Positions 5,001-35,566 of a stretch of 64,000 nucleotides of DNA are shown here, piece after piece. Both the position numbers and the translations under genes were made by a program. The notes under the pieces are model-generated. The model was not told the DNA's origin, searched no databases, and saw nothing but the letters and a program-made list of their open reading frames with translations. The stretch is from assembly GCA_973895155.1 (NCBI GenBank), contig OZ316894.1, positions 18,700,805 through 18,764,804 on the forward strand, given 5' to 3'. The stretch comes from Marsupella aquatica (Eukaryota > Plantae > Marchantiophyta). Each line of letters starts with the position of its first letter. Within the stretch, counting starts at the first letter, position 1.

Positions 5001-7565
5001 CTTGAGCTTGTAGTAAAAGTAAATTCAACGAACATACGAAACGTCAGCTATCCTTTCAAGCTCAGAACGTCCGCATAAAGTAATGCAACATACTTGCTCA
5101 AGTACTCTTCGCTTCTTTGCAGCAGAAATTCCAGCTTTGGGGGCTCCACCTGGTCCCTCATTGCAATCCTCGTCTCCATGCGCATCTCTCTTAAGGCTCG
5201 AAGAAGAAGAAGACCTATGCCTGCCCTCCAATCTCCTTTGCGAGCTGTGACTAGGAACGCCTGCCCCTCCTTGACCATTTCTCACAAGAGAGACTGCCCC
5301 ACCATTACTAGAATTATCCGAAGCCAATCCATCCAATTGCGGAGGTGGTCCATCGAACAGAATGCGAATTTTTCTGGAGAAACGCGCTTTCGACCTAAGA
5401 AGTTCTTGCCGTTGCTTTTCAACATAAGCTATGTCCTCCCTAAGAAACTCTAAATCACCTTGTAGCTGCGAATCCCAAAACAAACGAAAATCAGCAATTA
5501 TGTGACTCCATTTCTTCAGAAAAAGAGAAACATGGTGCTAAGAACCCCGTCCTAAACTTCAACTTCAGCTCTTGTTGGAGGTAACGGACCTTCCGTAAAG
5601 GAACAGCCACAGAGAAATCATTGCCCGAACAGCCCTATGTCTCACCTCATTCAGTTCATCTTGTTTAGATTGGCGAGATCGGTGGAGAAACTCCAAAAGG
5701 ATCTCCATATTAGACTCAGCTTCCTCCTGTTCAGCCTTATGCTTCTTCTCTGCCAGTAACGCTAATAAAGAATCTAGTTCTTTAACAGAAACTTCTCCCT
5801 GTCAAGCCAACAACGAAATCAGCCTCGAATGCAAAACTGTCTACAGCTTTCTAAACACTTTCAACCAGGTAAAAACCTACTACAGAGTCTAGATCCAGCT
5901 CACCGAGCGGATCATCTCAGGCAAGTTTGGTATCTGAGATGGCTATGCTTGTGTGAAAATTTGCAAACCAATGTGCGAGAAGGATCAACTCACCTTCGTA
6001 AGAGCCATACGGATGTTCTCTGTTGGTGAAGCGTTAGTAACAAACTGGCAGGCTGAAGCCTTCCTTAGAAGCTGGAAGAGACAGGAAAAGTAAGGTTAAC
6101 ACTAACAGTAGAAAGTTACTGCGATATCCTTTGCAATCACCGCAGAGAGCTCAAAATACTGGTCCAAAGTGTTGAAAGGCTAGAGACAATCAAAACTATA
6201 CGAAGGAAACTCCTCATCGGCTAGAAACACACAATGCAGAGACTGACAAGCTAATATATTTTCGCATCTGAACGAGATCAGAGATCAGCCGTTGCAAGAG
6301 GCCATGGACAAGGGAGCTAGAAGAACTACGAGAACTTTAGTACGTGAGGACTAAGAGAGTACAGGCGTAACTCCAAATTCCAGACAAGGACAGCCCCATT
6401 TTTGCAATGACCACAGAATGAGCGTCAACGAATAAGACGTGAAAGAAATCAAAAAATGGCAAACCCTATCAACCTATCAGACCCTGTCCCACTCTAAACC
6501 TGAGGAGTAGCACCTCACTGCTCGTCTATAGCATACCCTTATATCAATTACAGGAGAACGTAGCACGGAAGAATCTCAGGGAAAAGGCGAATCATCCCTA
6601 ATCAATCCAATTGCAGCCAAAAGGCTCTGCTAAAGACGGGAGGAGTTCCCAAAGGCTGTTGATCCAACCAGAGATTTGCCGCCACAATTTCTCGGCTGTG
6701 TTTATCGTTTCCCGCATTTAGAGATCGCGATACACGCCACAAGATAGACCCCAACTCTTTCCACTCCAATGTGCAAAGCAAAATTCAAACCGGGCAGACT
6801 CACCCTTACTCCAAGCCAAATCGGGACATGAGACGACTGAGCACATGAAGTAACACCGGAGCCCATTCCCTACTTTTGGAAACTTGCATAGACTACTGTG
6901 ACAGGAATTACTTGAGGGACAATGCACAAAAGCCACATGTCCAGTGGTACCAGCCTCTAATGCATCAAGTACAACATAGAATCAGGGAACAGTCTATACC
7001 TCGCTATTACAAAATCACCAGTACCAGCTAGTAGAAAATGATGCAGCACTACTCCCAGCGCCCGCCCGCCAAATCGGAATGGACATTCCGTTTCAAATAC
7101 CACCACAAAGAAATCCCGAGCGCACCCAGCATGGCTCGCCGTGCAAAGAAGGTCACAATGCAAGAGATTGAACCAAACAGGAGCCGAGGAAAGAGAGAGG
7201 AAGAGAGGTTCTTGAAAAGAACATTGCATGTTGCAGCTGACCTTATTTAGGAGAAAGTTAGGAAACAGTTGGCTATTTGTCAAGTAGAGGCCGCAGCTTG
7301 GACAGTTACTCTTGTTATTCAAATGAGTCATAATACAGGTGTAGCAGAAGCTGTGACCGCACGCCGTCAAGAAGGCATCCTTCATCGTTTGAATGCAGAT
7401 AGGGCAGAGAAAATCTTTGTCCACTTCCGATTTCGAGTGTCCGCCTGCAAGTGAACTGACCCTACCCTCCTTACAATCCGAACCCCAGGAATCCCCCCGG
7501 GCATCAACTTTGGCTCCTCCCATAGTCGGAACACTCGGTCCAACAGACCCTTCTGTGATCTCCAT
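2094..7565 (-). CDS. COP1: E3 ubiquitin ligase COP1 (RING, coiled coil, WD40), about 13 coding exons
   Basis: Exon 1 (ATG 7565 to donor at 7242) encodes the RING finger [38 protein letters not shown]. Coiled-coil/NLS exon contains [11 protein letters not shown]40 exons include [24 protein letters not shown] and [12 protein letters not shown]-terminus is [14 protein letters not shown] (stop 2094-2096). Introns are GT-AG. Confidence 0.97.
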
Positions 7566-10500: not shown

Positions 10501-11702
10501 AAGTTTGGGTTTTGTACAAGGACAAATATCAACACATGCTTTTGAGGGCCGGGCATTGTGAGAGAAACCTTGGTTCCTGCTAATAGTTTCACTTGTAGTG
10601 AAACAACTCCAAATTCTGTTTTAGCTCTGGCTAGATGACTACTTGTGGTATGGTGGTGAAGTGGCCATGAGGTTACCTTTGATTGAGCATTGAGGAACAA
10701 CTAACTATCTAGAAAAGCCACTCTCCATTTGATAATCTTGAATTGAGTTGGAATTATATCATTTCTTACATTCATAACTCTATCTGCTAAAAAAGGGGGG
10801 ATTGATGCCATACACATGGTTCGGCCGCCCTGACCTGAGTGTACAGTATAAGGTACTGTAGCCAACCCTTAATGATGTCCCATACTTTGTACTCCATACA
10901 TATTAGCTCGTTAAATCATGCCCAACATTTGAAGCCCCCCTTTCTACTGATTGGAATAAAGACTTCGTTGTGTGGATTCTCTTTACTTTTCATGTTAATT
11001 ATGTTTGTTATTCTATTTGTACATTGTAATCTTGTTTGTCCAAATTTATTGATTACCAAACTACATCTTTTGTAGTTTTGTGTGATGATATCTGTTATGC
11101 AATGAAAATCCTAAAGGAAACAACCTGTTTTGTGGCACAACGCCTTTTACACAAAGACTTCTGTTATGCAACAACTTCTTTGACATACACAAAGTTTTCC
11201 TGCACAACATCGTTTGCACAGTCATGACATCATATGTGCAATAACCTCCAAATGACCTCATCTTTTGTGCAGCATATCTTTTACGCAATGTCATCTTTTT
11301 TGCAAGAGCATCTTTTAAGCAAGGATATCTTTTGTGTACATCGTCTATGCAAGACACGGGTGTTCAACATGTATAGTATGATGTATGAGCATGTGAGTGT
11401 ACCAGGTGTACTGAGGGGTGTGGACAAAAGTACCACAATGTGTTGGGGACCCCACTCGTTATTTGGGGCTGAGTATGTGCAAGAGTAGATTAAATAAGTG
11501 ACGCTCAGCACAGGTTCTCGATCTCGAGACCCCACGTACCTCATCCATATTGATTGGCTGAGTATGGGGGAGGGTAAAATATTCATATAGAAAAAGTAAT
11601 ACAGTATGATACAGAAGCATATGGGTAAACTAGACATACCAGGTGTACAGTAGCTGGTTAATAATGGAAAGGAGGACAACCCAGATTTGTTAAGGAACCC
11701 AG

Positions 11703-11728
11703 TACGGTGTTTGAAATGTTGCGGGGAG
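11703..11728 (+). repeat. Left terminal inverted repeat of the IS3EU-like element
   Basis: 23/26 match to the reverse complement of 35230-35255. A further GAAAAGAGTCT..AAAGAGAG subterminal match lies at ~11770 and ~35200-35220. Confidence 0.85.
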
Positions 11729-12769: not shown

Positions 12770-15060
12770 GCATTTATTATTTGGCAATTTCTTTCAAAGG
12801 GGTCCAGACTAGAGTAAATACCAACACTGTTTAGAAATACAAACAACTTGACCACATTTGGGTATCACTCTATGGTGTAAATACACAAAGAAAATATGAC
12901 GATTTGTTTCTCAGCATTTTATTAAGACAATGGTCCACAGGTAGCGTAAATGGGAAGAGCACAACAAAAATGCAAAGGACTTGAATTGACCTGCACCACC
13001 ACACAATTGGCCAAAGAAATGTCAAACTGACAGCAAACTGGGAGCAAATTTGGAATCACCAAGGCCCACTAAATCTAGGGTGTAAAAAGTTATGTTAATT
13101 TGCTTCTTGACATTTTTTTGAAAGAAAGATCCAAAGCTAAGGTAAATGGGAAGCTCATATTAACCAAAATACAAATGACTTTCTCCCCTACACAACTGAC
13201 TTATGAAAAATGAAACCAATAAAGTGAGAGCACATTTCAAATCACAACATCAAGCTTAGCCTAAGGGGTAAATACACAAAGAAATCATGTGAATTTGTTT
13301 CTTGGCATTTTTCTTAGACAAGGCTCCAAAGTTAAGTGGGGTAAATGGAAGGATCATCACCAAAATACAAAGAACGTGAACAAACTTGCTCCCTCACATA
13401 GCTAACTAAGGAAAAATGAAATCAACGAAGGGAGGACTGATTTTGATTCACATTATGAGGCTCAGCATGAGGTGTAAATGCAAAAAAAAAAACCATGAGC
13501 ATTTGTTTCTTGGCATTTTTCTATGACAAAAGCCCAAAGTCAAGTAGGGTAAATGGGAGAACCATAACACAAATACCAAGGACTTAAATAAGCGAGCTCC
13601 ATCCCACAATTGCCCAAGAAAATGTGCAACCAGCAAAATAAAAGTGGGTTTGAGATCACCAAACCAGACTCAGTCAAAGGTGTAAATAAATGGAGAAATT
13701 ATGTGAATTAGTATCTTGACATTTCTAACAAGGCTCCAAAGCTAGGGTAAATGGGAAGATCAAAATGAAAAATAATACAAAGGATAAGAACAAACTTGTT
13801 CCCCCACACAACTGACTAAAGAACAAAAATGAAAATCAACAATTTTGATTCACAATATGAGGCTCAGCCTAAGGTTTAAATACAAAAACAAATAATGAAC
13901 ATTTGTGTTTTGGCATTTCCCTAATCTGACAAGAGTCCAAAGTCAAATAGGGTAAATTATAGGAGAACTATAACACAATTAACAAGGACTTGAACAAACT
14001 CACTCCATTCCATGACTTAGCAAGAAAATCTGTAACCAGCAAAATGAGAGTGGATTTGGAATCACAGGACCAGGCTCAATCAAGGGTGTAAATAAATGGA
14101 AAAATTAGGTGGATTTGTATTTTGACATTTACTTGAAACAAGGTTCCAAAGCTAGGGTAAATGAGAGCATCATAACCAAATTACAAAGGAGTTGAACAAA
14201 CTTGCTCCCTCACACAAATGGCTAAGGAAAAATGAAACTAACAAAGTGAGCAGATATCTGATCACAATATAATTAGTCTGAGCATATGGTGAAAAGCACA
14301 AATAAATTTTGAGGATTTGTGTCTTGGCATTTTCTTAAAATAACGGTCAAAGTTAGGGTTAAATGGGAAGACCATGACAAGTATACAAAGGACTTGGACC
14401 GACTTGGTGCACCACATAACTGGCCAAGAAAATGCTGAACCAGCAAAGTGAGAGTGGATTTGGAATGACCCAAGCCAGGCTCAGTCTACTAAGGGTGTAA
14501 ATACTCAACAAAATTATGGGGATTTGTATCTTGGGATTTTGCTCAATCAAGGTCTAAAGGTAGGGTAAATGAGAAGATCATATCCAGAATACAAAGGATG
14601 AGAACAAACTTGATCCACCACACAACTAACCAAGAAAATTTCAAACCAGCAATGTGACAGGCAGATTATGAATGAAAATACCATGCTTAGTCCAGGGTGT
14701 GAACTTGTGGCAAAATTATGAGGATTTGACGCTTGGCATTTTGAGACAAGGGTCTAAAGGACAATAAGCTCTCCTGGAGCAAATATAGAAATGACTTGAA
14801 TACTCTTGCTCCACTACAGAAGTGACTTAAAAAAGGTGAAACCAACAAAGTGAGATCTTGTCCAATGACAACAATCATTGTAAATGGAGGTTGTACAACA
14901 TAAACAAGTTATGAGGATCTGGTTTCTTCAAACAAGCTAGGTTGGGTCTAAAGCAAATTTGGAATCAAAATACCAGGCATGCTTAGTCTTGCAAAAATCA
15001 AGGATTTAATTATTGGCATTTTCAGATAAGGGTCCAAAGCTAGGTTAAATACTAGGATGA
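12770..15060. repeat. Degenerate ~200-bp tandem array (~10-11 copies) inside the left arm of the transposon
   Basis: GGTAAATGGGAAG-like anchor recurs at ~12946, 13141, 13340, 13548, 13746, 13951, 14156, 14359 and 14565, with shared AAGGACTTGAACAAACTTGCTCC and ATTTGTTTCTTGGCATTTT blocks. Confidence 0.85.
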
Positions 15061-15189
15061 GAGCAAAATTATGGGCTCAAAACATGAACAAGTATCTCTT
15101 AAGCCAATAGACTAGAAAATCACTTCTTCGAATATTGCTAAAGCCTCAAGAAGAAGTGTTTGTGTCACTGGTAAACTATTACATTACCT

Positions 15190-17077
15190 CACATATTGTG
15201 TCAATCATATAATCTGTAATGTTTGTTGCAAGGATCTTAAGGCCCATAATCTACCATCTGACAAATTAGGTAGCCCTAATTCATTTTGTACATAGTCCTC
15301 CAAGTCCAATGAAGCGTCCATACTATTTTGACACTCTATAGAAAGAAGAAGATGCATTCACAATTTGTCTTTTGCAGTTGTGACTGTCACTTGGTTCCTT
15401 TCATATGCAATATCCCGAATGTATTGTAGATTCTGCAAAAGAAATAAAACATGAATAAGGGCATATAAACAAAAGTATTTCTTACATCATCATTTCATAA
15501 TTCACATGAACATTAATCATAATACAAAACAATGCTTACTTCATCATTCAAATTGTTTATGCGATCTTCAAAGTTTCCACGATCATTGTTGTGATTCCAA
15601 TAATCAATTCCCATTGGATCGATGATGTCATCTTCTTGTTCGATATCCACCTGAGCTTCTTCGGCATAAGGTGGAGGCTGAATAATTCTAGCTTCTCTTT
15701 CTCGTGATTGAAATGCAAGTTCTGGAATATGTGATGGTCTCAACATACCTCCAGTCCGCACAACTCTCACAGTATATGCATTCCATGTTAAAACCACATC
15801 ATTTACAGCCTCTTGCAGTAAAGGAAGAATCACAGTAACCATACAATATCTATGAAGTGGAATATCAATTTGTAAAAATCCTTCCACACATAATAAGTCA
15901 TATAAAGTCTTCTTGAAGTGATTAGTTCCTTTTTGTTTCATGTAGTTCCAAAATGCCTCAATTCTCTGCCAAAACATATGATAGGATACAAATATAAGTA
16001 CCTGCACAAAATTGATTTCAAATTTCCAAGCTGCAATCGATGACATGAAATATGAAATGAACCACTCTATATGTTCTTGTTAATCAGAAATATTACCTGA
16101 TTATGAACATAAGACCCCTGCGAAAACAATTTGTATTTGGTCTTGCTCTTTCAAGGTTTCTTCTTACCAAAACATGCTCTGTTGCATAATCAGAACGAAT
16201 CATCAATGGATGACCAAATCTAAGTATGGTTGTCTTATATCCCACATATAGAGTCTAAGCTTTCTTGTTCAATGCCACATGCATCCATGGAACAAAGTGT
16301 GTAGCCCCATCAATTGCACCATGAATTCTGAATCCCCATTGCGTCAATTTATCATATGCTGCATTCAATTTCCAAACAATCTATTAGTATTGAGGATCTA
16401 TTCTAAAGTTAACTTCAATATAAAAGCAGGAAAAATTTAGAAGAGACATAGATGTTCTACTTACAATCCATATGCCACAGATGCATTGGCTCAATTACAT
16501 CATAAAATCTCCTTATGATGCATCTTCGTGCCCTTCCTTCAAGTACACCAGGAAGTAATGTGTCCAAAGCATTTCTGACAAGTGCTAGTGAGATTTTATA
16601 ACCAGCCTTTTTTAAACTTGCTCTAACAAAACATATTCCCCAATCTTCAGCATATCCATGGATTGGTATAATCTCGGTAATAAGAGAGCAAACATCTTCT
16701 AAAGTATATCGGGGATATATTCTATGCTCAATATCAAAGTTTTTGAGGCATTTCCATAGAGTCACTTTATGTACGCCAAGTGCATCTGCACATTCATTCA
16801 TAGTGTACCCTAGGTTGAGAGCTCTTTTTACATCTGTATACTGTTGAAAATTTGGATCATTCATATTGATTGTCCAGCGTGGGTTGAGTATAGATTATAC
16901 TCCACAGTTTTATCAACTAACAACTTTAACACCTGCAACCATATACAAATACAAATAACAGTAGTCACTCAATTTTTGTTTTCTACAGCAATGGACTATT
17001 GCTCTTGTAAGCTTGGCCCCAACACTGCCTGTTCATAAATAATTGTTGATGATTCCCAATTTGGAAGCAGATGACAT
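15190..17077 (-). pseudogene. DDE integrase-core transposase (IS3EU type) with N-terminal HTH, spliced and inactivated
   Basis: Exons read ..CADALGVHKVTLWKCL..RRFYDVIEPMHLWHMD|SYDKLTQWGFRIHGAIDGATHF..HPLMIRSDYATEH..GSYVHNQ|RIEAFW..LPLLQEAVNDVVLTWNAYTVR..P. Catalytic D, D and E are present. There is an in-frame TAG at 16255-16257, a frameshift at ~16120 and further stops near both ends. Outer limits are approximate. Confidence 0.88.
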
Positions 17078-17257: not shown

Positions 17258-19438
17258 TTAAAACTCATAAGCATTGCCAAGTTTTTGGTTTACGGCAATT
17301 CCAACTACATATACTGGTTTCATTGGTGGACTTCTATACGATGTAGCATGAGGATCTTGACCCCGAACAAAAAATAAATCTCCATCTAAAATTGAAATTT
17401 TTAATTCCATATTTTAGCATCACTAAATCTCCACCTCTACTTTCATTCGATGGATTACATGCCATGAACATTGTAAACTCTCTTTCATCTACATCTATAT
17501 GAACTTCATTGCAATAGTCCTTTGTGATGAATAAAGGATATGCAGGAATGGCTTTTATCATGAGTTCAGGCTTTGAAAAACAAGCCAAAAGCTCACTGCT
17601 AAGTTCCATCATTGGAGGCATAATCTCAATAAAACTCTCCACCACTGGCCAAAAGTGTTCACAGAAAAGAACAAAAAGAATTTCAAACAGTAATCGATGT
17701 GCACATTGCTCATAGAGCAATTCTAATTGAACCATAGTAGGATCCTGTGTTTGTGATATCTTCAACTTATTACGGTAGAAGCTCACAAAATGATTACCTT
17801 TCCCTTCTCGCCACTTCACTAATGGGCCAATTGCCCTCATGACATTTTTCAATGCAGATCGTGTATCTGACCTCTTCACTGTATATTTATCATTCCATAT
17901 TTCTTCCACAAACAACTGAACAAAAGATCTATCTTTCTCTAGAACACCTCCTTTCATCCGACCTCCAATGATTTCATCACCATCCATCCAAATCTCCACT
18001 CTTGATGAAATATCATCTTGTAGAAAGGCTTGATCATCGGTCTCCAAACTATAATTTGATTTGCCCAAGGTGTTTCCAAATCTTCCTCAATCAAATAGCT
18101 GGAGGAAAATTTACCAACAAAATTGGAAGATTTCTTGGTGAAATTTGTAAACTTTATACGGGATTTTCCAAATTTCTAGTAATAAATGATCTTTCTTACT
18201 TTTAAGATACATGTCTAGATCAGTTCGGAACTTCTATATACGATCTAATAAGCCTCTCCCAACAGATGATAGATTGTAACGATTCATTATCATATGAATG
18301 ATGCTACTCCATTCTTTTTCATCAAACCAAGCAATCCAACTTCCATCTCTTCTTAAACTGTGAAAACTATCAAAAAAGGTTGACTGATTTCCTTTTAGGT
18401 TTCCCTCGGATAATATCTGTACACCATATTCAAAAAGATAGTATTCGCCCAACAACCACTTACATAGAATTTTTGTATGAAAATGACCTGCTTTCCCGCC
18501 AGCTTTTTGAGCAAGCTTGGTGATTTCACAGAAATAAAGAGATGCTGCAGAGAACCTCTCGGAAGATACCTTCACTATTTTTTTGCCCTATAAAAGAAAA
18601 AAGAGTTTCATCTTAAATTTGCAGTAAAAATAACAAATATAAACCTACGATGAGTATCAAATATGCTAAACATTTTGGACACAAAACACAGCCATAGAAT
18701 ATAGACTGTATCGGCCACCGAATAATGAGGTTTCTTCCACTATACGGGAAGTCACGCCCCCCCCCCCATAGGTCAACTATCAATATATTCACCTGACAAT
18801 GAATTGGACTCACAAAATGTGTACTGGTTTCAAATATATTCCAAACATTTTCTGATCTCAAAGTATATTAGTAGTGAGAAAATATCTTACCTTTAGAATT
18901 GGAGTCTCACTTTTTTTCTTTTTTTTTGTCTTTCAATCCTTCCATATTGAGTAACCTGTAAAATGATTTAAATTCTCAATGATTTGTCAAACTATGTGCA
19001 ATAGAAAGACTATCACCTAGGAAAAAGCTTAAATTTAGAATGAATTCTTGTCATCCCAGTTCAAAAATTATGTTGGACGGCAAGCAGCCACATTCAAAGC
19101 TAACATTAGCCCACCATACAAAATGTGAATCGCAAAGATTTCTCCTATGGTAGTATGTAACATACCTAAAAATTGAAGATACGGTGTATCAGGTAGGGTG
19201 TCATCCAGTGCACGAACTTAGCAATGGGAGACTTGATTTTAGAGTCAACGCTGCATTTGTAAAAGCGACTTGTAATAGACAGGGCATAATGAGGTCATGG
19301 ACAAACAAACTCAAATAACACAACCTAATCCAAAGAGATAAATTCAGAAAGCCTTATTTCACTTACAAATCTTTCTCCGTTGAAGATTGTGAATAGAACA
19401 TCCACATCAACAATGGTGGTGGTCTTGTCAAACGCCAT
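17258..19438 (-). pseudogene. 2OG-Fe(II) dioxygenase, TET/JBP-like, three exons, degraded
   Basis: Exon 1 MAFDKTTTIVDVDVLFTIFNGERF|GT (ATG 19438), exon 2 VTQYGRIERQKKKKKSETPILK|GT, exon 3 from 18587. C-terminal domain reads ITKDYCNEVHIDVDEREFTMFMACNPSNESRGGDLVMLKYGIK, then after removing 1 nt in the T5 run at 17398-17402, ISILDGDLFFVRGQDPHATSYRSPPMKPVYVVGIAVNQK..* (17258). This gives an HxD...H triad in a DSBH pattern. Lesions: TAG at 18234 and frameshifts at ~18030-18170. Confidence 0.7.
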
Positions 19439-19499: not shown

Positions 19500-20047
19500 T
19501 TTCTAGGGCAGCATTCTCATGATGAAATGCACTCAACTTTGCCAGAAAATGACACCTAAAAAAAGCTGCAAGTTGCTCAAATTTTGTAGGGCAACATTTG
19601 CTTCACAGAATGCACTCAAACTTTGTCAGATCTTAGAAGAAAGAGTCACAATTGTGCTGGCAAAGTTTCAGGGAAAACCGAGCTCAGAATCGAAACTGAA
19701 AAAAACAAAACGATCAAGAGATACAAACTCGATAAAATTTGACCTAAAAAAAGTTGCGAGTTGCTCAAATTTTGTAGGGCAACATTTGCTTCAAAGAATC
19801 CACTCAAACTTTGCCAGATCTTAGAAGAAAGAGTCACGACTGTGTTGGCAAAGTTTCAGGGAAAACTGAGCTCAGAATCAAAACTGAAAAACAAAATGAT
19901 CAAGAGATATGAAATCGACAAAATTTGACTTATAAAAAGCTGCGAGTTGCTCAAATTTTGTAGGGCAACATTTGTTGCATGGAATGCACTCAAACTTTGC
20001 CAGATTTTGGAAGAAAGAGCCACGACTATGTTGGCAAAGTTTCAGGG
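19500..20047. repeat. ~188-bp tandem array upstream of the dioxygenase gene, interrupted by the nested insertion and resuming at ~23907-24010
   Basis: AAAAAG(C/T)TGC(A/G)AGTTGCTCAAATTTTGTAGGGCAACATTTG at ~19560, 19748 and 19935. The unit's CAGGG^AAA junction is split at 20047/23907. Confidence 0.9.
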
Positions 20048-23000
20048 TGTCGCGTCCCTAACCTGGGCCTTAAATCCAGTTTAGTGCCATGGCGCAACCT
20101 CGACCACCAGTAGGGGTGAGGGTTTGGGCAAGGAGGTGTGTAGTGGCCCCGATTAGCCCTAAGTCGGGCTAAGCCGATATACTTACTGGTATAACACTTA
20201 AGCAATTCGTACTAGTCATAGGTATCTTTTATTTTCCACCGCTGGAATCCTCCCTCAGTTAGTGACTCGGACTAACTCCCGGCTTGGGGCTTTTCAAGCC
20301 ATCGACGCGACAGAACCTTGTGACATACAATGGGTGGCAATCCCTACCATTAGTCCGCACCCGGTACGTCCCTTAAAATGGTGCCTTTGCCCAGACAAAG
20401 CATACTCACAACACCAGTTACCTGCGGAAACATTAGAGGGAAAAGACTATATTTACTCAACGAAGCATCAGTTTACATGGTTGACTCGACTTCAAAGGGG
20501 GTCAGCAGGCCCAACGGCAGTCGATGCCCAGTCTCTACGAGGCCCCGCCTCGCACTTGCCCAACAAGCTTGACTCTAGCTCTCACTCCTTGGTGCGCTCT
20601 GACCCTGCTCAGGCCAGGACTCCCCGTGCCTCACCTTTCTTCTGCTGAGATAACTAAGCCTTCTCCCCCTTCCATAGCGGAAGGGGAAGCCTAAATACTA
20701 TAGTTTGCGGAATAGAACCGGAGGATACTACCTTCCGGGATACTACCTACTGACTAACTACCTTCTGACTACTGGCCGTGCCGCACTAACTGGTTGATCG
20801 TCGACGACAAGGGTGCCGACCGGGATGGCAGCGGCCAAGCCTACTGACAAAAATCTAGTCCGTTGATGGACTCCATCCTACGTTGGCTGATCCTGACTGA
20901 TCCGGCCCTAATTCTTCCTACTACCACTAATCGGCGCCTAATGACAGCTATTCTGTCGTTACACCTAACCAAAAGATGCCGCTGACTTAACTACCTCGCG
21001 CGGCGCCTATTTCCACCCTTCGCTAACCACCCCTTACGTGTGTGTTGTGGTTGGACCAGGGCTGGTCCCCTTGTCGGGGCGAGACCTCGAGCCACCTTGA
21101 TCAAAGGTGGGCCCAGGTTTTCCCCGCTGGAGGACGAGCAGGGTAACACGGTCCTGCCAGGCCTTGTTGTCCCACACCGCCTCCTCCGCCTCGTTTGCAG
21201 CTTCATCGGCCTCGGTCTGGAGCCGCGCTACCTCCAGGTTGAGCTGGTTAATGGAGTCGCGATGGATCTGGTCCTGCGCCAGCAATTTATCCCGTTCGGC
21301 GGAGAGACTAGCCACCTGTTGTGTTGCCTACAAGAATTGTTTGTTGAGGTCGGTCAGGCTGGTAACCCAAGCCGAAGATTCTGAGCGTAATTGAAGCACG
21401 GTGTCGTCCAACTTCTTGAGATCTCCTTGCGCTCCGCTTAACTCCTGGGTTAGTCCGTCCCTCTGTTCGACGGTGTGGACTAACTCCTCGCGGCGGGTAG
21501 TGGCCTCCTCCTCGAGGTGCTCTACCAGCATCTGGAGGCGCCCGATCTCATTCCCCTTCGCCATGAGTTCTTCTTCCAAGCGGCTTATGATCCGTGGTTG
21601 GTGCTCTAATATGAAGAAGGTTGGTTGAAAGTACGCCGAGACTTGTTGTCCGATGTACGTCGCCAGCTCCCTAGAGATAGTCTGGCTAAACTTCTGGACC
21701 AGGTCGTAGGCCATGGTCCCCGGGGGCTACTTGGTAGTCCTCCATCCTCTCGGGTACCAGTGGTTCCTCGGGCGGGGCAACGAGCTCCTCCGTAGTCTGT
21801 GCTGGGGAGGGGAAGGTTTCTTTAGGTGGTGGAGGGATTGGGGGTGGTTATACTGCGGGCAGCGGAGGCTCGACGGAAGGGGGCGGCAGAATTTCCACAG
21901 GAGGAGGTGGCAAAGTATTAGTCTGGGCTTCCGGCTCAGGGTTTGCCCGAGGGACGGTAGTCCGCGCGCTCGGGGTTGCCTCCTCTGGGTGGGGGTGACA
22001 TTAGTCGGGGCTGAGGTGGCCATATTCTTTCCTCTGGTCTCCCGCCGTGCCTTGTAGTAGGCAAGGATAATGGCGATATGACTTCCCAAGTAAGTCTTCC
22101 CCCCAATAGCCACACCACACTGAGCCCGCTTCAGCTCCCCCGAGAATCTTCGGTAGAAGAATTAATTGGGCCCAGTTCCGCCGTTTGTACTGTTCCACCT
22201 GCACGATCGTGCAGAGGGAAATCTCGGATCGTGGCTCAATCATGTGTAGGGTAATCCGTATGAAGTTAAGACGCTCCATGCAGATTAAGTTGGTGCACGA
22301 CCCCTGCTTGTATCCGTTGTCCGTCTTACCCTCGGGTTTGAAGTGCCGCGGTGTATACTCCTTATCCCGAATTCGGAGTTCAACCGACACTGGCCCGGTT
22401 GGCAGGCAGAAGATTTGCGTTAACCGATGCTCCGTGAGTGATAAGGCCTGCCCCAAAACCTTGGTGGTCGATGCGTCAATGTCAAAATTGGAGATGAACT
22501 CACAAATCTCCTTCGGCCCGGCGGCGCACGGCCTCCATAGCAAGTGAGCGAACTGCTCCAACTGATGCTCCTTGAGATAGTTCGCGTGTTCGAGTTTCTT
22601 GATCGCGATCCAGACTACTTTGGGGGCGCGGATTACCTGTAATAAGTTGGACTTCGGGTTATTCGGGGGCCGTCGGGTCTGGTTGGCCGGGGGGTTTGCC
22701 GGGGCAGGTGCAGGCACGGCGTTGGTTTGCGTTGTTGATTCAGGGGCCATCGTCGTCCTTGGTCGCTTACGAGAACGTTGTTTGAGTTGCGGACTAACTC
22801 GCTCGGAACCCGAAGAACACTTTGTGTTGATCACTGGACGGACTTGGGACCGGTTCGGCGGTACGCCGGTGGTCATCGGCTCAGGCACTGGTGGTATCGG
22901 GGTAGCCATATCCCAGTTGAAGGCATTGGAGCTTTCCCCGAGGAACGTAAGATTACGCGCCGCTTCCCGTTGTCTGCTGATGTCTTCTTGACACTTTTCG

Positions 23001-23906
23001 GACGTGATCTGCTGGTCTAGGTACCCCGGAATCTTGTCAAACTCCGCTTGAGTAAGCCGTTGGCTGCCCTTCAGCTTAAAAAACTTTGCTGGGACTTCAT
23101 GAATCGCCTCTGCTACCGATCTAAGCCCTTCCTCGCTGAGATATAGTTCGGTGATGTAGTCTCACAACTCGTTGTAGCTGGAATCCCTGGTGATGGCTGT
23201 CCTTTCGCAATTAACCAGTGCTACCTTGGTCACCAGCTTCGCGTATCTTCGTTCGTAAGTGGCTTTCTCGGGACAAGAGTACCAGTAAGTCTCGGAGAAC
23301 TTAGCACCTTCCTCGCCAAACAAGGTCCAGAATCCCAAGGCTGTAAGGGTCATACTAACCTCGTAGTCCGGTTCGTTGAGTCCACGTTCCCACCCGGCTG
23401 GTCCTTTTGCTCGTGGAGGCCTCGCTCGTCCTGACTAAATCTTGCCACATTCCGCTCTTATCCCTCGATAATCTCCTTGTAAAGGTCGACTTGATTCGAT
23501 CAGAAAGGTGAGTGGATGGCAACGTCCGCAAATTCCAAAAAGGTGGAAATGAGCAAATGGCCCGCAGCGCCATCGGCTCCTCTCTTATGGAGGTGCCAGG
23601 GTGAGCCCGAGCGTGAGAAGGCCAGGCCATTTTGGTCATTGATAATGAGCTGAAGTCGGCGCCTCGGTCCAAGCATGATTCTTCTAACTGATTTTTACTC
23701 CGCTGCCGCCACCGTACCTCGGTCGTGCGTAATAATCCTCTTCCTGAACTCGTAATCATTCGGTCATCTTAACCTACTCCTAATCTATTCATAATGGCAA
23801 TAGACGACTATACGTGCTATTCTACGCTACGGCTACGGTCCTAACGTCCGTATAAGACCTAATCTACGACCTGGGTTCAGTTAAGTGACACGTTACCCGT
23901 GTCACA
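20048..23906. mobile_element. Solo-LTR-like insertion 1 (3859 bp, TG...CA, 5-bp TSD) carrying a long ORF
   Basis: Begins TGTCGCG and ends GTCACA. CAGGG is duplicated at 20043-20047 and 23907-23911. GC-rich against AT-rich flanks. No internal terminal direct repeat and no RT/integrase motifs seen. Confidence 0.85.
20991..23759 (-). pseudogene. Degraded long ORF of insertion 1: plant-transposon-protein-like domain plus coiled coil
   Basis: ORF pieces 23355-23759, 23162-23353 (reads through TGA in frame into 22001-22909), 21328-21714 and 21034-21315. Contains EFISNFDIDASTTKVLGQALSLTEHRLTQIFCLPTG and a C-terminal coiled coil. Homologous to 37747-41397. Confidence 0.7.
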
Positions 23907-26900
23907 CAGGGAAAGCTTAGAATCAAAATTTGACTTAAGAAACACTACGACTCCTAAATTTTATACGACTACATGTGCATTGATAAAATTGACTAAAAAT
24001 TTCCAAGATTATTGAGCAAATAATGCCAACTCTTCTGGAAAATATTCAAGAACAACTGACCTTAGCATCCATATTGAAAAATATGGAGCATGGATCATTA
24101 AAATCCAGTAAACCATAAAAAACCAAACACAATATTGAAGGCAAAAAATAGACTTTAGAAGTATGTAGTAAAGTCATGTTTAGTTGGCATTATGGAATAT
24201 GACCAAAAAATGAGAGCTTTAGCTTGCATTTGGAGGGGTTGTTTCCCTAATGGTTTGGCAAATAAAACCTTATTATATTGAAAGGCTTGAGAGATTTTAT
24301 TTTTTCTTGATTTAGTGAAAGTAATGGACAATCTTACTCAAGAGGTGATCCGGATCTTGTGGTGGGCATTATGCTCCAAGAATGTCCTGAAAAATACAAA
24401 TGGAAAACTTGCAAAGGGCATTAAGAAAGGAATATTTTGGATGGATCTTACCTTGAATCAAAAGCACGTGAACTGTGATTAGATAGAGAAGACTCCACTA
24501 AAGACATGCATAAATTCTGAATAAACGAGCGACCATGAAATAATTCTAGACTTTCCTTTTGAGCCCTGGTACACTATCTAGCTTTAGGATGTTACATGGC
24601 TGATAGATTAATTAGCTCTGGTGAAAAAACAATGAAACTGCCCCCAAGGCCTTGTACCCTAACATAGTGAGCAATACATTCATTGAGAAAGACAAGTTTG
24701 AAATACAAAAGGAGGGAAGAAGTTGAAGGAGGAAGAATAGTGCTTGGAGGAATTCTCAAGTTGTAACTTTGTTATGCATGTGGACCTAGAAAAGCGATGG
24801 ATATAACACTAAATGTTGTGATTAGATATAGTGTTGGTATACAAATAATTCAAACACTATTTCACAAGTGTACATGAAAAAATGTGTAGTCTAAATTAGA
24901 TTGCATGAAATGGGTGTAAGGTATACTGATGTCTTGCAACTAAAGTCTACTTCTGCTATTTATATGACTTCCTTAGGACTCACCTACCATGGTCACATGA
25001 GTGACTTTTTGACTAGTCACTAACATTTACATGATTCAGTTTTTGACTAGTCACTATCATGTCTTTATGTAATCTATAAAAATCTTGGGATTAAATCTCT
25101 TGTAATTAGCATGACACCTATAGGCCACTAACAACTGAAGTATTTCCAGGTCACTTATAATTCAAAAATAGATATTTCTCTTAGTGTCATTTTAGCCAAT
25201 GGTTCCCCATTGCTTCCTTGCTTCCCAGCTTGCATGTTTTACTAGTTAATCCATTATAATATTTCCAAGGGCAACTACACTCTTTACAGTATGTAGTCTC
25301 ACAGACTCTAATTACTGTGAGGTTATATTTGAGGTAAGTGATGGTAATTAGGGTGTGTGACACTAATATAGTATGACACTAATTGTGGTCACAAGTCAAA
25401 TAGTGTCACACATACTTAAAGTTTTAAAAAAAGAATGGACAATAGGTAAAATTTGCTTATAAAAAAGCTTAAAATGTGCACAATATTTGATTACAATTTA
25501 CAAAACTTACTACTCATTCAAGCATTGAGAAAACTTAAGAAACTTATAACTCCTTTCATATACTACTCAAATATTGAGCAAACTTCAGAAATTTATAACT
25601 CCTCCTCACATTTGCAGTTTGGGGTACTCTTGAAACACATTGAGCAAACAAGATCTCTTTGATTCACTTTAATCAACTATGAATAGTAGATGTTGTCTCA
25701 CATAAGCTACAAACTAACATTTTTTTCACTCTCCTACAATCTGTCCCATGTGTCTCATCCTTGCAAGACATTGTACAGCCCCAAGAGAAGAGGGTTGAGC
25801 TGGCTCTTCACCTGGGTCACCAATATCAGGAGCCACTTCAACAGTAGCATCAATGTCAAGGCCAACTTGATTCCTTTAAAACTTCACTCGATATTTCATT
25901 ATGATATTCTGAAGCTCAGGTGTAAGTTGATTTTCAGACTATAAACCATTGACATTTAGAGACAAAGTGGTATTTATCATTGAATTTTGTGCATAAGACA
26001 TGTCATGTCTGTCAACAGAACTGTTCACCTCAGCTACAAAGTCCCTTGCCAATGTCAAAAATCAATGTTTGCCTTCATGTTTGCCTGGATTTATCAATTT
26101 CCCAGATGTGCCCTGTGTCCCAATCCATCTATTAGTAGGAGGAATTGCCAAATAATATAAGTAGCAGGATTTGTTTGTAACTTGCAGGAGTGATTTAATA
26201 TTCCTACTAAATTCACCAAAAACTGGCTTGGGTGAGGGGGCAAATTGCCAGATCTAAGAGTATAAGGGTAGCCATTAGCTTTGTCATGTTATCTCAAGTC
26301 ATCAAGCCATTCCCTTTGTCATCTCAAGCTATCTAAAACGTACCATCTACAACTTACTGCGGTTACCAGTGCTTGGAAACCCAACAGTTTGTTTTTACTT
26401 TATCAAATATTTATTACAAAACTTTGGAAACCCAACAATTTGTTACTTCACCAAATACTTATTACAAAATCTTGGAAGCCCAACAGTTTGTTTCTACTTC
26501 CTCTAGCAGTGTTTATTTAAAAATCTTTTAAAATTAGAAAAAATCTAACATTTAATGCAAAACACTGATATATCAATTCTAGTTATTGCCTTGTTTACTA
26601 TCAAACTTTCTATTGGAATTTGGCACCAAAAAATATGTATCATTTGTGCACATGAACCAATCATATTCTTCACACTAGTTTTTCCAACCTTCACCTCGGG
26701 AATAAGTTACGATGCCCACTCTTCACCATTGACAAGTCAAATCCAACAAACATAATTGTTTGGTGACATGTAAAGTTCTTAAGGTTTTATAATTGAGGAC
26801 CTTAATAATCGACACAATTTTAAAATACTTATTTCTTTCATGCATGTCTCTAACTTTGAATAGTTTGGAGTGTACTACTAGCTACAATACTATAGTTTAC

Positions 26901-27320
26901 AATAGTTCAATCATCTTACATGCGTTACATGCGTAGCAGTGTCTTTCTAAAGAAAATAAGAAATGCGGTAACCCGCTTTTGGCAATTATGTATCCGAGGG
27001 CTAAAAAGAGCTGCTAAAAAGAGCTGTGGTAGCTAGTCTTCATTATGATGAGATGATTGTTAACAAATATGATATGTACTGGAAGTTAATGTGATACTAA
27101 TGTTCACCAAATTCTTGAAATGGCGGCTGTACTCTAACAACATCTATTACTTTCTGCTCATAATATAAGATAATTTGTACTACTCGGTGATATCTACCTT
27201 TGATCGAGCTTGACACTTTGCACTCTGTTCGCAAAAGTAGTAATGAACTAGAGCAGAGCCTCAGGTTCTTGGCCATTTGGATCTTGGGTTTCAATCTTGC
27301 GTTGAATTCAGAATTGCAAT

Positions 27321-30300
27321 ATGGATGAACCTACTGATAGTCGAGATCCTCGTCAGAGAAACCCTGTCCAAGGATACAACAGAAATTCGAGGATGATCCC
27401 ACTAGGAACTAGTACACAATCGGGTCCTCGGGAAACTACTGAGCCAGTGACACTTCCACTATATGAATTTCCAACATTCCCAGCCTCGTATCACCAATAC
27501 AATTATCAACCTGAAGGAGAATCTGGATGTGGATCAAATAGATGTGGAGGTGGAGGAAATAGAGGTGGAGGTGGGGCAAACAGAGGAAGGAGACAGATGA
27601 TTGCGAGACCTCCTCCAATAATTTGCAATCGAAGGAATTATGATAAACCAGTGAGTCGTGCTATATATTGTCCTCAACAAATTTGGGAGGCACAACAAGT
27701 GGACACAGGCAATCAGAGTTGCTACATGCAAAGAGTGAAAAAATTCAGGCCTCCAACATATGTTAGTCTACCTGGGTCAACGCCTTGGGGTGGTGTCTAT
27801 GATGGAGGTCAATTCCGGGAAAATACTGCTCAGTGGCATATTCGGGAAATTGTGGCATCTCAAGAATGGGCCCAAAATACTGGTTCCGCTGACATATCAG
27901 GATGCTTTTTGAGAATGACAAATGTTGGGCAACACAAAGACGACCTGGACAAACTAGGTGGTGCAACACTAGATTCATATTTTCTATCGGGGGACACCGA
28001 ATGGAGAAACGTGTCTCGGTTTGATAAAGTAGTATACATTCCAGACCCCTCTTGTCAAATGACGCCACAACAAATAAGACATTACCATGTTGAGGCGGCT
28101 GGTTGTTCAGGTGCAATAATTATTGTGCCTTCACAAGGAACACGTCGACGTAAACGAGATACCGGACAAAATATCCATGGTCACTCGACTGCACGTTCAG
28201 GTAAAGCAAGCAAACATTTTTGTCATCATTGTTACTAGATTCTTAGATTATGACATTTTTCTGCTCTTTCCCAGCAAGTCTTTGGATATGATTTGCATAT
28301 TAATTGAAACTTTTGTCTATTCAGAAGATTCCCCAACGACAGAGCATCGTCAGGCATTTGAAAATGAAACAGAACATGCGCAAAGTCCTTCACAGTCATG
28401 GAATTCTAACACTCAAAGAGAGAGCTCAAACTTGAGCTTTGTAGCTTCTGAGTCTGAAGGGATTGAGGAGACAGAAAACTTGCACGACCCCACAATAACT
28501 TTGACAGGTAAGGATATCAACTTCATTTGTCTTGATCGATGCACAAGTAATATTGAGTAACAGGTAAATCATTTCTAGCTCCATTGATGTGAAAAATACA
28601 CCATGAAGCTTTATGGATTATATAGTGTAGCTTCTATGTAATTGATCGAATTAGGTATCTAATTGCTTATTGCATTGTTCTGGTTTGAAGCCCTGCAAAA
28701 TCTGTCAAGAAGATCCTCTAATTTGTCATCTCCATTAACGAGCTCGTCACCTCAATTGGGAAACCCTTCGACTTCTGAGTTTCAAACCCAGCCCAATGAC
28801 AGCTCACCTTCACCCCATGGTGACTCTTAAGTACATGCATCCTTTGAGTTTCCTTGGCCATAGATCACTTTAGTTTAATAATTATTCAATTTCTTACATG
28901 TTAGCATGGGTGGGGGTTAGTTTGTAGGTGTACGTATGAAATTAGTATTGCACAGCATGCATATGTAAGATCTATGAAAGCATGTTCTGAATGAGGCTAT
29001 GGGCTGCAAATGATTGCTCTTCTTGGTTGTGCATTTTGTACCGCATCCCCTCAATTTTTGACCAACATGGTTTTTGTTGTGCGCTTCTGGTGGTGTTCTG
29101 TTTGTCTGCCTTGTTGTGGGCAGTCCTTTTGTTTATCTGTCAACACCTTGCCAATAGATTTTTGGAGATGCTTTTTCTTTGAAACTACAGTGGAATGACC
29201 CTATCAATCCAACGCACTCCAACAGGTCAATGGCCCTCTTCTCTCCATATTACTCTCACTTACAGCACTGACTCCAGAATGAGCCTTACTGAAACCAAAC
29301 TCCTAGTGACTGTGATGGAATCACTGCAAGTGGAATACTTGATGCTCATTACCAGGTAATCATGGCCCCAGGACGCAACCCTCGAATTGACATCCACTGA
29401 CCCTGCTGATCAAGGTTGGTTGTTGGCCATTTTGAGAAAAGCACTTCCTATGACCCTGGAGTTATAGGTGACATGATTCCAAACAAACTCCAGTAGATAT
29501 GGAGCAGAGACAGGTGGGGTGATTGATGCTCCAAAGCTTACTTGTGGTATGCAAGATGAGCCCCAATCCTGCTTCAGGTGTTTCCTTCTTTTGCATTTTA
29601 GTGCAACAAAACAATTCACTGATGAAAGCATTGGGGAATCTTGAAAGTTTGGCCACTTCAAGATCGACTACCGACCAATGAGTTTTTTATTGCAAGCGTG
29701 TTGAAGCAAGTTTGTACATGTTTTCTTAGCTCAAGAGGAAGACCCTTAGTACACACTTCAAACCGTAGCAGCCATGGTATTTTCCATCAACGCTGATTAG
29801 TATGAGGAACAAATGGAGTGTCTAGCATCATAGGCTTGTGTGCAGCCAGCCAAAGCTTTGAAGCAAAAAACATTCTTTAGTTCTGCTGAGTAAAATGAAA
29901 TCATATCGCACTCATCACAGTTCTGATCATAATGTACACCTGCATTTAGGAGAGTAGAGTAATTAAATGGTAAATCATTGGCATACTAAGTCATCGGTCT
30001 TTTGGTCAACTTTTGTATAAGGAATTTTCAAGACATTATTTTGCTTTTCTCAGCCTGCTAATTATTGCTCTATTGCTCTCCATTAGATGCTCTGGTCTCT
30101 TCATGTGGATTCCCTTGCCTGACCTCATACAACTTTTGTAAAGTTTCTATATATCTAAGTCTTGAGTTACAGTTATGGCCGAAGCTCAATCTGGATACCA
30201 AGCTTTGAGATGCTTTACTGTAGTATGTAAGACTTTTCAAGATGTCTACAGTAAGGCAATAGTAGGTTAACAATGCTGCCATGAAATCATAATATATATT

Positions 30301-33300
30301 AAAAAGGGTATAGAGTGGCTATGTGAGTGAAAGCAATCTGACAATCCAACCCTAATGTGAACATTGGGTAATTGTGAAACATGATACAGGTGCATTATTA
30401 CTGCCAACTTTACCTTTACGAGCTCATTCATTTCAAACTTCAAGAACCAGAGGTGTTTTGAACGAAGCTATACCTGCACAAGGAGCCCTAGTCTTTGGAT
30501 CTTCAAGACATGAGAATGAAGTAAGCCTTGTAGGGACTGTTCATAGTCCCATCATATTGGAAAATGAAGAGGTTATTGAAAGACAATCAAGATTACAGTT
30601 ACAAAGAGGTAAGTGAAAATGTCAGAATTGTGTGTTAATTAGGGTTCAGGATTTAGAGTTAAGGATTTTGATTCGGGTTTGGATTGATTCTTATAATATG
30701 TAGGCTTGAGTGGATGGTTGAATATTTTTAGAACTATTTTGTGATTGTACAGGCACACCCGAGAATGATCGATTTGAGGATGATCTTATAACAAGTGAGA
30801 CAGAGACGTTTGCCCTGCTAGATGCGTATTGTGCAGCACAAGAGCGGCTTCAAAAATTGGATGAAAGCATAAAGTTGCCTGTGGATCAAGCACCAAATCA
30901 AGCCATGGCAATCTTTTGGGAAAATTTTGATGCCGTTTTAGTAGAGGAACACAATAAAATGGATGCTACAGTTGCTTGTGCAGATCTGGAATTCCTTCAA
31001 CATCGAAGAGAAGCAAAATTGGGATTATCAGATGCAATGCTGGAAGATTTTGTTACACCAGTGTTAAATGGTTTAGAAGGCCTAAGTTCGTATACCAAGT
31101 ATGACTTTGGATACTATTTTGAGGCAGCAGCCATTCCAAGGTGGCACATGTGGGAAAATTGCAAAAACTCATACCCGATCTTGTTCCTGAGTTTGTTCAA
31201 AACGATTTGGACAGATCATTACAAATCTTCAGGTAATTAATGGTTGACATGTTTATTTCAGTGTTCATTTTAATCAGATGTAGTGAGCTGAATGCATTCC
31301 ATTATGATTTTTGTAAATTTAAAGTGAATAGTTTTCATTGTTGAATTTAACAACATACTGTGGATTGTTGAGCATTATTCAGAGATTATTTGCTTACTCC
31401 ATCATACGGGAAAGGGAAATTTTCAGAAGCCCGCATTATCTCTCTGCGCGACGAATACATTGCATGGATTGGAAAATGTCAGCTTGAAGAACCAACGCTT
31501 ACAAGTTGTGAAAATATGTACATTGAAGCCAAAAAAGAAACTGAAAGGACAAAATACTTGTTAAGGGTCCATCAGATTTCTGACATTGGACTTTCTCACT
31601 TTCGGAAACTCTATAGGCAGGTTCCACAAATTCGAATTCAGGTAATGTAGAAACAAAAGAAACCCAGTCTTGAAAATGTTCGTACTTATCTATAGACTTG
31701 TTGTATTTAATGTCATTTTGCATTTAAGTTTATACATCTAAATAACTTTATTTTGTCTGTGCAGTTTTATGACGGTGATGAGTTAACTGCTATTCGAAAG
31801 ATGTGCCAAGAAGCCTTGAGAAGACAAGAGATATTTGGAGATTTTGCAGCAAAGTTAATCTACACAACACATAGTGGAGAAGTAACACTGGAGGAATCTG
31901 AAACTGTAGATGCAGGGGGTGTCACAAGTCGATTGTTGACAGGGGCTTGGAAGACTCTGTTTAGTGGAAGTGCAATAAGTTTTCTTGATCATGAATCAAT
32001 AATTTTGTTCAAAACTAGCTAGTCCGAGGACTAGTCATGCAATTCAACCTTGAATCATAATTAACATATTTATGCAATGCAAGAATTCTATGCAGTTTTC
32101 ACAGAGGGATGTGGCGGGCTTCATCATCTTAATTCCAAAAAACAATTTACAAAAATCTCCAAGAAAGATGTAAGTCATAAATAACAATGTAAAGTTTTTA
32201 AAATATTATTCAATTGTAGTGTTCCAGACTGTTTCAATGGTTTATATCATTGCTTCAATTTTTTTAATGTTATTGACTAGGTTTTTACTTGTCATATTCC
32301 ATCAGGTTCAACTTGTTGGTCAACTCATGTTTCTTCTCATATTGAAAAAGAACAAGTTCATCGTCCAATCACAATGGCCACAATTGCTCATGCCATGGGT
32401 AAATGTCCCTCCCGTGAAGATATTTACATGCAAGTGCAACAAGAAAAAACAAAACGATCAATTTATATAGAAGATTTTCGAGTTGTTCGACCAACATGGT
32501 ATGTAAATGTACCTAGTGGGAACCATGCACTTTGTTGTTATACATTATTTCTATGATATTATTGTCTTCTCATTTTATACTGTGATCTTAATTTTATAGG
32601 TAATGATCAAACTAATTTTTTATTGCAGGTATGGTTTCATGCAGTCTTTGATTAATGCTCCAGAAGAATCAAGAGAGGGTCTCATTGACAGCATGGAGGA
32701 TATAATGCCTGAATATTATTGCAGGGTTGTAACACTTGACCCAAACTGGTCAACTGAAGCATTTCAGAAAGCAACTACAAAATTGTATGCAGATATCATA
32801 TATGAGACTCTATTTGGAGCTTGCAGCCTGGTTGGTGCACTACTTCATGACGGATTCTTCTCATTGGCGAAGACTGTGATGGCATCTCCCTTCATTAACG
32901 AGGCTGAAAAGAAGCTTGTGTTGACAAGTATATTTAAAGACATCTCTGTGAAAGCCATGCCAGCATTTTTCAGTGCGCAACAAGGAATCACAAATAGAGA
33001 GTTTTTGTCAAGGGTCAGATATTCAATAGATTTTCCACCAGCATTGAAAGACTTATTTCAAGAAGCAATTGGTCAATTTTCTGGTGTTGAAACCTATAGA
33101 TTATATAGGTTTATTACAGATGAGAAATACAATGCAGGTACAATATGTCATGTGAATTTTAGCCCTAGTCAACCTTCGAGCTCTTTGCCTATTGCATCCA
33201 CCTGTTCTAAACAAATTGATATTCCTGCATATCCAAATGTGGAAGTGATGCACTCCAAGTTGGTCATGGCTAGTTTCAACACCGCCTACGGCAAGTTATA

Positions 33301-33301
33301 A
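27321..33301 (+). CDS. Transposon-borne HECT-domain E3 ubiquitin ligase-like protein, ~10 exons
   Basis: Approximate exons: 27321-28200, 28325-28507, 28691-28819, 30390-30608, 30753-31232, 31383-31641, 31775-31970, 32095-32169, 32281-32498, 32629-33301. HECT N-lobe motif ESETVDAGGVTSRLL. C-lobe RLYRFIT..LPIASTCSKQIDIPAYPNVEVMHSKLVMASFNTAYGKL* with catalytic Cys (33203-33205) and an aromatic residue at -4. Two junctions are not cleanly resolved. Confidence 0.8.
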
Positions 33302-35229: not shown

Positions 35230-35255
35230 CTCCCCGCAACATTTCGAACACTATA
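35230..35255 (-). repeat. Right terminal inverted repeat of the IS3EU-like element
   Basis: CTCCCCGCAACATTTCGAACACTATA followed by TSD copy ACCGAG. Confidence 0.85.
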
Positions 35256-35566
35256 ACCGAGTGACCCTCTCCGGTTTTGGGTTGAGCATACCAGAGGGCA
35301 AAAATTTCATATGAAAATCTCATGAATTATTTTTAAGCAAAAGCTGAACTCTAGAGACTCTGATGTAGAGTAAATAGTCTAGACTTTGACTCTTGGTGGC
35401 AACCAGTTTTGGGGTGGGCAACGGAGGCCCTGAGCAAAGCTTAAATAGTCAGGCTAGAGCAATATGATACAGGAGCGTGCTGAGAATATGAAAATATTTA
35501 ATTATATGTTAAGTGGCTGGACCGGGCCATAGTTTTCCCGGGAGACAAGTATCGATAAAACTATTG

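Follow-up and report, generated by a model that had tools for sequence, protein, structure and literature searches.

A decayed TET/JBP-like dioxygenase gene carried by an IS3EU/GingerRoot transposon of the liverwort Marsupella aquatica

The element and its genomic surroundings

The window analyzed here is a stretch of 64,000 nucleotides from contig OZ316894.1 of the Marsupella aquatica assembly GCA_973895155.1 (positions 18,700,805 to 18,764,804 of the forward strand). It contains a DNA transposon of the IS3EU/GingerRoot type, 23.5 kb long (11703-35255), that is recognized by its terminal inverted repeats (TIRs), its target-site duplication (TSD) and its transposase. A search for inverted ends gave one clear pair, at 11703 and 35255. 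The left TIR (11703..11728, plus strand) starts with TACGG and agrees at 23 of 26 positions with the reverse-complemented right TIR (35230..35255, minus strand), which ends in TA; the match is ungapped over these 26 bp, and a weaker, gapped similarity continues beyond. TIRs of the superfamily are expected to exceed 30 bp. Compared with the reverse strand of the window, the left end reaches a local score of 39, while 200 random 40-mers average 23.9 and reach 34 at most. Six-base-pair duplications adjoin both ends, ACCCAG on the left (11697..11702) and ACCGAG on the right (35256..35261), with five of the six bases identical. Measured against the TAYGG...CCRTA termini of the fungal TET+ IS3EU families (Kojima 2025, PMC12730594), the left end TACGG agrees exactly and the right end CTATA at four of five positions.

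Three genes were recognized inside these ends. A broken, intron-containing DDE transposase of the IS3EU/GingerRoot type occupies 15200..16864 on the minus strand (3' end approximate); two of its pieces score above the cut-off for the Pfam family rva_4 (PF24764; E 3.5e-11 and 4.3e-06), and it carries an in-frame stop at 16257-16255 and a putative frameshift near 16115. Just upstream, in the same orientation, lies the TET-like dioxygenase gene. In the orientation opposite to the transposase, a multi-exon gene at 27306..33301 (plus strand, limits approximate, drawn from open reading frames) ends in a HECT ubiquitin-ligase domain (PF00632, E 2.6e-08 on 32600-33298). The element ORFs scanned gave no alpha-kinase match. 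Since the dioxygenase gene lies between TIRs and TSDs, it is indeed transposon-borne, as the earlier note had supposed; for the TET-like family, the status of transposon cargo is established for the window copy alone. The combination of a HECT gene and a TET-like gene in one element has no counterpart in the portions of the TET+ IS3EU and GingerRoot literature available to us.

The element has itself been interrupted. A younger, 3.86-kb nested insertion with TG...CA ends, a perfect 5-bp TSD (CAGGG) and a GC content of 54% sits at 20048..23906, where it splits a series of 186-bp tandem repeats (19554..20047); its ends suggest that it derives from an LTR retrotransposon. It contains no long internal direct repeat and has ORFs of up to 386 aa that match nothing in Pfam, and it is possibly a solo LTR of unusual length that can encode protein. 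Arrays of roughly 190-200-bp tandem repeats recur in the window, one at 46042-47430 in addition to the one just named and to a diverged series of ~200-bp units inside the element (12870..15070). The arrays at 12870-15070 and 19554-20047 flank the transposase-TET gene pair and could be binding sites of an element-encoded protein. At ~25500-26300 on the minus strand, a stop-riddled stretch without a Pfam match resembles, by eye, the start of a LINE endonuclease.

Outside the element, at ~2094-7592 on the minus strand and thus ~4 kb from its left end, lies a host COP1 gene encoding RING, coiled-coil and WD40 regions. It scores 134 bits against the Arabidopsis protein and 81 against the human one, and a COP1 this plant-like on the same contig indicates that the element integrated in a green-plant genome; the dioxygenase gene does therefore reside in a plant, as had been proposed. 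The observed/expected ratio of CpG is 0.21-0.45 in the element versus 0.70-0.71 in host genes. On the other side, 36085-45709 is occupied by another DNA transposon, whose inverted ends measure 25 bp; it contains a minus-strand gene with a NAM-associated domain (PF14303) and a transposase-like fragment at 36650-37213, and by its motifs it resembles PIF/Harbinger. Three GC-rich reading frames within it (698, 275 and 259 aa; 37693-41397) probably mark a nested insertion, and at 42975-43071 the two arms of a perfect 34-bp inverted repeat are separated by 29 bp. Further right, the motifs of minus-strand exons at ~53574-63314 are presumably those of a DNA polymerase alpha catalytic subunit.

Decay of the dioxygenase gene

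Homologue alignments and a profile match delimit the main coding region of the dioxygenase gene to 17258..18587 on the minus strand. Its most visible part is an ORF of 250 codons (18086-17334) that includes HIDVDE, with the HxD motif at 17501-17493, and GGDLVMLKYGIK. The frame is lost in a run of five A at 17402-17398. The codon of the distal His (17350-17348) sits in the next frame, which ends at a TAA (17260-17258), and a Val codon (17314-17312) takes the place usually held by the distal Arg.

The relatives of this protein are few and were reached by sensitive searching alone. Word-index searches returned 0 of 149, 1 of 891 and 2 of 3485 candidates as homologues; the single one among 891 came from a search of longer proteins and is P0003, an intact protein of 479 aa (E 6.7e-100). 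Only the full HMMER search, over 1.84 billion representatives, reached the family, with 13 relatives at E values up to 0.001. These form a close group of ~38-54% identity and a distant group of ~25-30%; a fragment of 59 aa stands at 44%. Each of the ten relatives whose records were consulted is a singleton from a short contig, and P0003, P0010 and P0015 (479, 449 and 457 aa) appear full length and intact. Metagenome contigs, viral contigs and prokaryote genomes yielded no related loci. Within the window, 24291-24479 was considered as a second copy for its weak likeness to the N-terminus of the family (E 0.72) and was rejected, as the likeness did not hold on re-examination.

The comparison with P0003 clarifies what happened to the reading frame. 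This protein aligns straight through the A5 break, with 60% identity over 249 aa of its C-terminal half, and in tblastn the two frames join at that point. An intact and continuous homologue means that the earlier note was right to restore the distal His by a one-base correction at 17398-17402. A profile of the homologues matches the downstream out-of-frame piece (E 1.2e-16) as well as an upstream piece at 18587-18237 (E 1.1e-12), and the query that had retrieved the homologues contained neither. Similarity to P0003 starts at 18575 and runs across an in-frame TAG at 18236-18234. In the middle of the gene, an alternative frame fits P0003 without gaps at a score of 80, compared with a mean of 25.7 and a maximum of 46 in 300 shuffles, which points to two compensating frameshifts at approximately 18185-18161 and 18016-18005. 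The gene thus has three frameshifts and one stop, four lesions in all, and is a dead copy.

What had been described as a gene masked by a single homopolymer frameshift is therefore damaged in four places, and the adjacent transposase is broken too. That the plant has an intact gene, with breaks introduced by the assembly, as the title of the earlier note implied, is highly improbable. One frameshift does fall in an A5 run, and the gene is rich in homopolymers, with 12 runs of at least five bases in 1327 bp; against this, there is a nonsense codon besides the indels, the transposase has a stop and a putative frameshift of its own, the TIRs and TSD have diverged, CpG is depleted, and eight further long reading frames of the window (672-2097 bp) remain open although each contains 6-26 runs of at least four bases. 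Together these observations make decay by far the likelier cause.

The 5' end of the gene is less well defined. Two small upstream exons had been proposed, and both are bounded by canonical splice sites and join in frame: a candidate first exon at 19367..19438 with a perfect GTAAGT donor and a second at 18911..18955, both on the minus strand. The basic motif of the latter reads RQKKRKK, not RQKKKKK as had been stated. This arrangement is one of 11 three-exon models that pass the same simple criteria, alongside one two-exon model, and an A-run that encodes lysines in all three frames explains the basic residues, so the nuclear localization signal-like exon is an unsupported candidate. No similarity to P0003 was found by tblastn upstream of 18575. 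A spliced 5' end of some kind is plausible, given a strong acceptor at 18588 and a strong donor at 19366.

Predicted fold and nearest kin

Structure prediction was applied to P0003, so that the resulting model describes a homologue and not the window copy. Using 13 sequences, AlphaFold gave a mean pLDDT of 48.6 and a pTM of 0.43, with 10-residue blocks at pLDDT 55-83 over residues 381-460; from the single sequence the pLDDT was 34.9. Searched against the PDB with Foldseek, the model finds CcTet or CMD1 at all of ranks 1-10 (E 1.4e-05 to 1.4e-04), followed by PHD1 (E 1.7e-04). The structural comparison that the earlier note had proposed yields CcTet, CMD1 and, in the chain-by-chain comparison that follows, NgTet1 as the best matches, modestly ahead of prolyl hydroxylases. 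VIA-align, run over 48,161 chains, places NgTet1 first (Z 11.4, rmsd 3.7, 190 residues aligned), then OGFOD1 and PHD2 (10.3) and TET2 (10.2); among its best 50 matches the four longest alignments are those with TET2, CMD1, CcTet and NgTet1. A second look agreed, with NgTet1 at Z 11.9 and prolyl hydroxylases at up to 10.7. Overall, prolyl hydroxylases trail NgTet1 by ~1 Z unit (10.3-10.7), and AlkB proteins also come close behind the TETs.

Sequence-based comparisons agree with this assignment at lower strength. PF20515 or PF12851 is the best Pfam match for five of ten homologues, always below the cut-off (best score 19.1 bits against a cut-off of 27, E 0.0014), and P0002 and P0003 have no TET-family match in Pfam. 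In the Atlas, the window's own ORF falls among Tet_JBP clusters at 0.95-0.96 in 25 of 30 matches, and P0003 among PF20515/PF12851 clusters at 0.93, with a recognition value of 1867 that lies below the trusted level of 2300. Sequence searching of the PDB gave no matches, profile searching of the PDB gave two unrelated matches and no TET, and in a viral fold library no single best match stood out among phage TET/JBP proteins and further 2OG oxygenases.

Judged from the predicted model, the family almost certainly adopts the 2OG-Fe(II) dioxygenase fold. TET/JBP proteins are probably its nearest kin, a conclusion on which three methods, each weak, agree. The earlier note had recognized a TET/JBP-like HxD...H dioxygenase from its motif layout, and the structural matches corroborate it. 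Because defining features of TETs fail here (the distal Arg, the stacking aromatic and the Pfam cut-off), we call the family 'TET/JBP-like' and not a canonical member.

Conserved residues and possible chemistry

Conservation was read from an alignment of 12 sequences, the window copy and 11 homologues; P0014 was excluded for its garbled middle, and P0005 and P0008 stay outside as they do not reach the catalytic motif. HxD is kept in all 12 sequences, which cover the motif, and the distal His, as His-x-Thr, in all seven that align through the C-terminus, a count that leaves out P0012, which diverges there, and four fragments that end earlier. The triad that the earlier note had put forward for testing in relatives is hence conserved. 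An Asp that follows HxD is present in 12/12, one residue nearer to HxD in 11 of them and at the canonical spacing in P0015, and Asn occupies the second base-contact position in 6/7. We favor the reading, at a probability of about 0.52, that the window holds a dead IS3EU/GingerRoot copy with a broken TET-like gene whose intact relatives likely oxidize 5mC in DNA and so aid escape from silencing.

The invariance of the metal ligands bears on a contrary proposal, that the family is catalytically dead and binds or shields methylated DNA. Such a role would suit the lost 2OG-binding Arg and a proximal Arg that is not clearly conserved: known enzymes have it as TET2 R1261 and CMD1 R244 (PMC7854593), and in the family a Trp-Arg near 291-292 is present in the close group and not conserved in the distant group, in a region with pLDDT below 50. 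Three metal ligands that stay invariant at only 21-34% identity to P0003 would be unexpected for a pseudo-enzyme, and we regard this proposal as improbable.

The most striking departure from known TETs concerns the co-substrate. The register of the distal Arg was taken from the end points of the structural alignments (TET2 R1896 onto 457, NgTet1 R289 onto 458, assuming an ungapped last strand), and in the family residue 457 is Thr, Val or Ala and residue 458 is Tyr or Leu, with Arg absent in 7/7. The 2OG-binding R383 of PHD2, we presume, likewise maps to residue 457. In TET2 and NgTet1 the corresponding arginines bind the C5 carboxylate of 2OG (PMC7854593). The earlier note had seen no obvious distal Arg in the window copy and offered simple decay as one cause; Val is indeed found there, and a loss that runs through all seven aligned sequences is a trait of the family and not a product of decay in the window copy. 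With the residue that normally holds 2-oxoglutarate missing, the co-substrate is uncertain.

It is possible, though doubtful, that the same cargo works with a co-substrate other than 2OG, ascorbate as in CMD1 or another, and leaves a different mark on 5mC. The loss of Arg in 7/7 next to an invariant metal triad suits this idea, as does the precedent of CMD1, which is transposon-borne (bioRxiv 2022.06.16.496473), ranks among the top Foldseek matches and is unable to use 2OG for want of a basic residue that holds the C5 carboxylate (PMC7854593). On the other hand, the family has no sequence similarity to CMD1, and its further conserved basic residues at positions 388, 440 and 450 could replace the Arg. 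Moreover, among 18 PU-type rows from IS3EU-borne fungal TETs, which are part of the rows in the supplement of PMC12730594, nine compared by eye are without Arg or Lys at the distal position and have His, Pro or Ser, so that loss of the Arg is not unique to the window family. Fungal PU-type rows also show, by eye, Gln or Glu at the position of the stacking aromatic.

That last position is relevant to the target of the enzyme. Known enzymes stack an aromatic residue on the base (TET2 Y1902, NgTet1 F295, CMD1 F416; PMC7854593), and the family has Ala or Val at the equivalent position 463 in 7/7. An active Fe(II) oxygenase that targets thymine, 6mA, RNA or else a protein, perhaps in concert with the HECT ligase of the element, would be compatible with this change, with the scores of prolyl hydroxylases and AlkB proteins close behind the TETs, and with the ability of CcTet, the top Foldseek match, to oxidize 6mA as well (PMC12730594). 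We consider it unlikely, as the Asp after HxD, which contacts cytosine in TETs and CMD1, is kept throughout, Asn is found at the second base contact in all but one of seven sequences, and TET-family chains yield the longest structural alignments.

Proposed mechanism and significance

Under the favored reading of a 5mC-oxidizing cargo, an intact element would have expressed the TET-like enzyme together with its transposase. The enzyme would have flipped a methylated cytosine into its Fe(II) site and then oxidized the base, and this oxidation would have lowered the methylation-dependent silencing of its own element. After insertion the element may have become methylated and eroded by C-to-T change, as the loss of CpG suggests, and the younger insertion would have interrupted it later.

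TET/JBP cargo was known beforehand in fungal transposons, including IS3EU (PMC12730594), and in Chlamydomonas (bioRxiv 2022.06.16.496473). New here are the host lineage, a land plant, and the protein family, represented by a dead copy. The literature listings and open papers covered gave no report of a TET-carrying transposon in land plants, and a prior mention elsewhere is possible. With this finding, the range of TET-carrying transposons, so far fungi and algae, comes to include land plants. A transposon-borne TET-like family that escapes Pfam and ordinary sequence searches would be a candidate source of modified 5mC marks in early-diverging land plants. The loss of the 2OG Arg throughout the family offers a real chance of unusual chemistry, and the full-length, intact P0003, P0010 and P0015 make this question directly testable in vitro. 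More speculatively, land plants (bryophytes or lycophytes) might harbor a hidden, transposon-borne TET-like family in which the 2OG Arg was lost and which marks DNA in a non-canonical way, perhaps with ascorbate as in CMD1. If true, land plants would gain their first known enzyme that produces modified 5mC derivatives, and IS3EU/GingerRoot elements a new means of countering silencing.

Comparison with known systems

The superfamily of IS3EU/GingerRoot is defined by TA...TA ends and a 6-bp TSD (PMC10045372), and within plants GingerRoot has been recorded in bryophytes and lycophytes only, not in charophytes (PMC6839031). That distribution by itself points to a non-seed land plant as the likely host. 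The window element shares these ends, the TSD length and a DDE integrase-like transposase (PMC6839031, PMC10045372). It differs in its size, 19.7 kb without the nested insertion compared with 3.9-12.9 kb for GingerRoot in Selaginella, and in a recognizable TIR of 26 bp as opposed to 100-150 bp for GingerRoot/IS3EU (PMC6839031, PMC10045372). It also carries a TET-like gene, whereas the GingerRoot paper mentions neither 'dioxygenase' nor 'HECT' (PMC6839031).

The closest parallel in gene content comes from fungi. In 2025, TET+ IS3EU transposons were described in rust fungi and Tuber, and in fungi only; their TET gene has the transposase on one side and an alpha-kinase gene of opposite orientation on the other, and in some of them the TET gene shares the orientation of the transposase (PMC12730594). 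The window element resembles them in its TAYGG-type terminus, 6-bp TSD and integrase-type transposase, and in a TET gene that is flanked by the transposase and by a third gene of opposite orientation. It departs from them in its plant host and in the nature of the third gene, a HECT ligase and not an alpha-kinase. At the protein level, the motif layout resembles the fungal PU type when compared by eye. The protein differs in an N-terminal region of ~220 aa and in having no Pfam-level match to the PU, AG or PE types, and it has HxD where the fungal PE type has HxE. For the fungal elements an anti-silencing role of TET has been proposed without a test (PMC12730594).

Compared with NgTet1, CcTet and human TET2, its best structural matches, the family shares the HxD...H triad and the Asp after HxD; identity is 9-14%, and the distal Arg and the stacking aromatic are missing. 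Carriage of oxygenases by mobile elements reaches further in algae, as a 2OG oxygenase is found in red-algal Plavaka elements (bioRxiv 2025.02.11.637652). Within the green lineage, the nearest analogue is CMD1 of the Chlamydomonas element DNA-1_cRei, which is likewise a TET homologue carried by a transposon and lacks a functional distal 2OG Arg (PMC7854593, bioRxiv 2022.06.16.496473). The two lack detectable sequence similarity, align structurally at 14-15% identity and belong to different transposons. CMD1 retains an Arg that points away and a stacking Phe, whereas the window family has neither (PMC7854593). CMD1 has been suggested to counter the silencing of its own transposon (bioRxiv 2022.06.16.496473).
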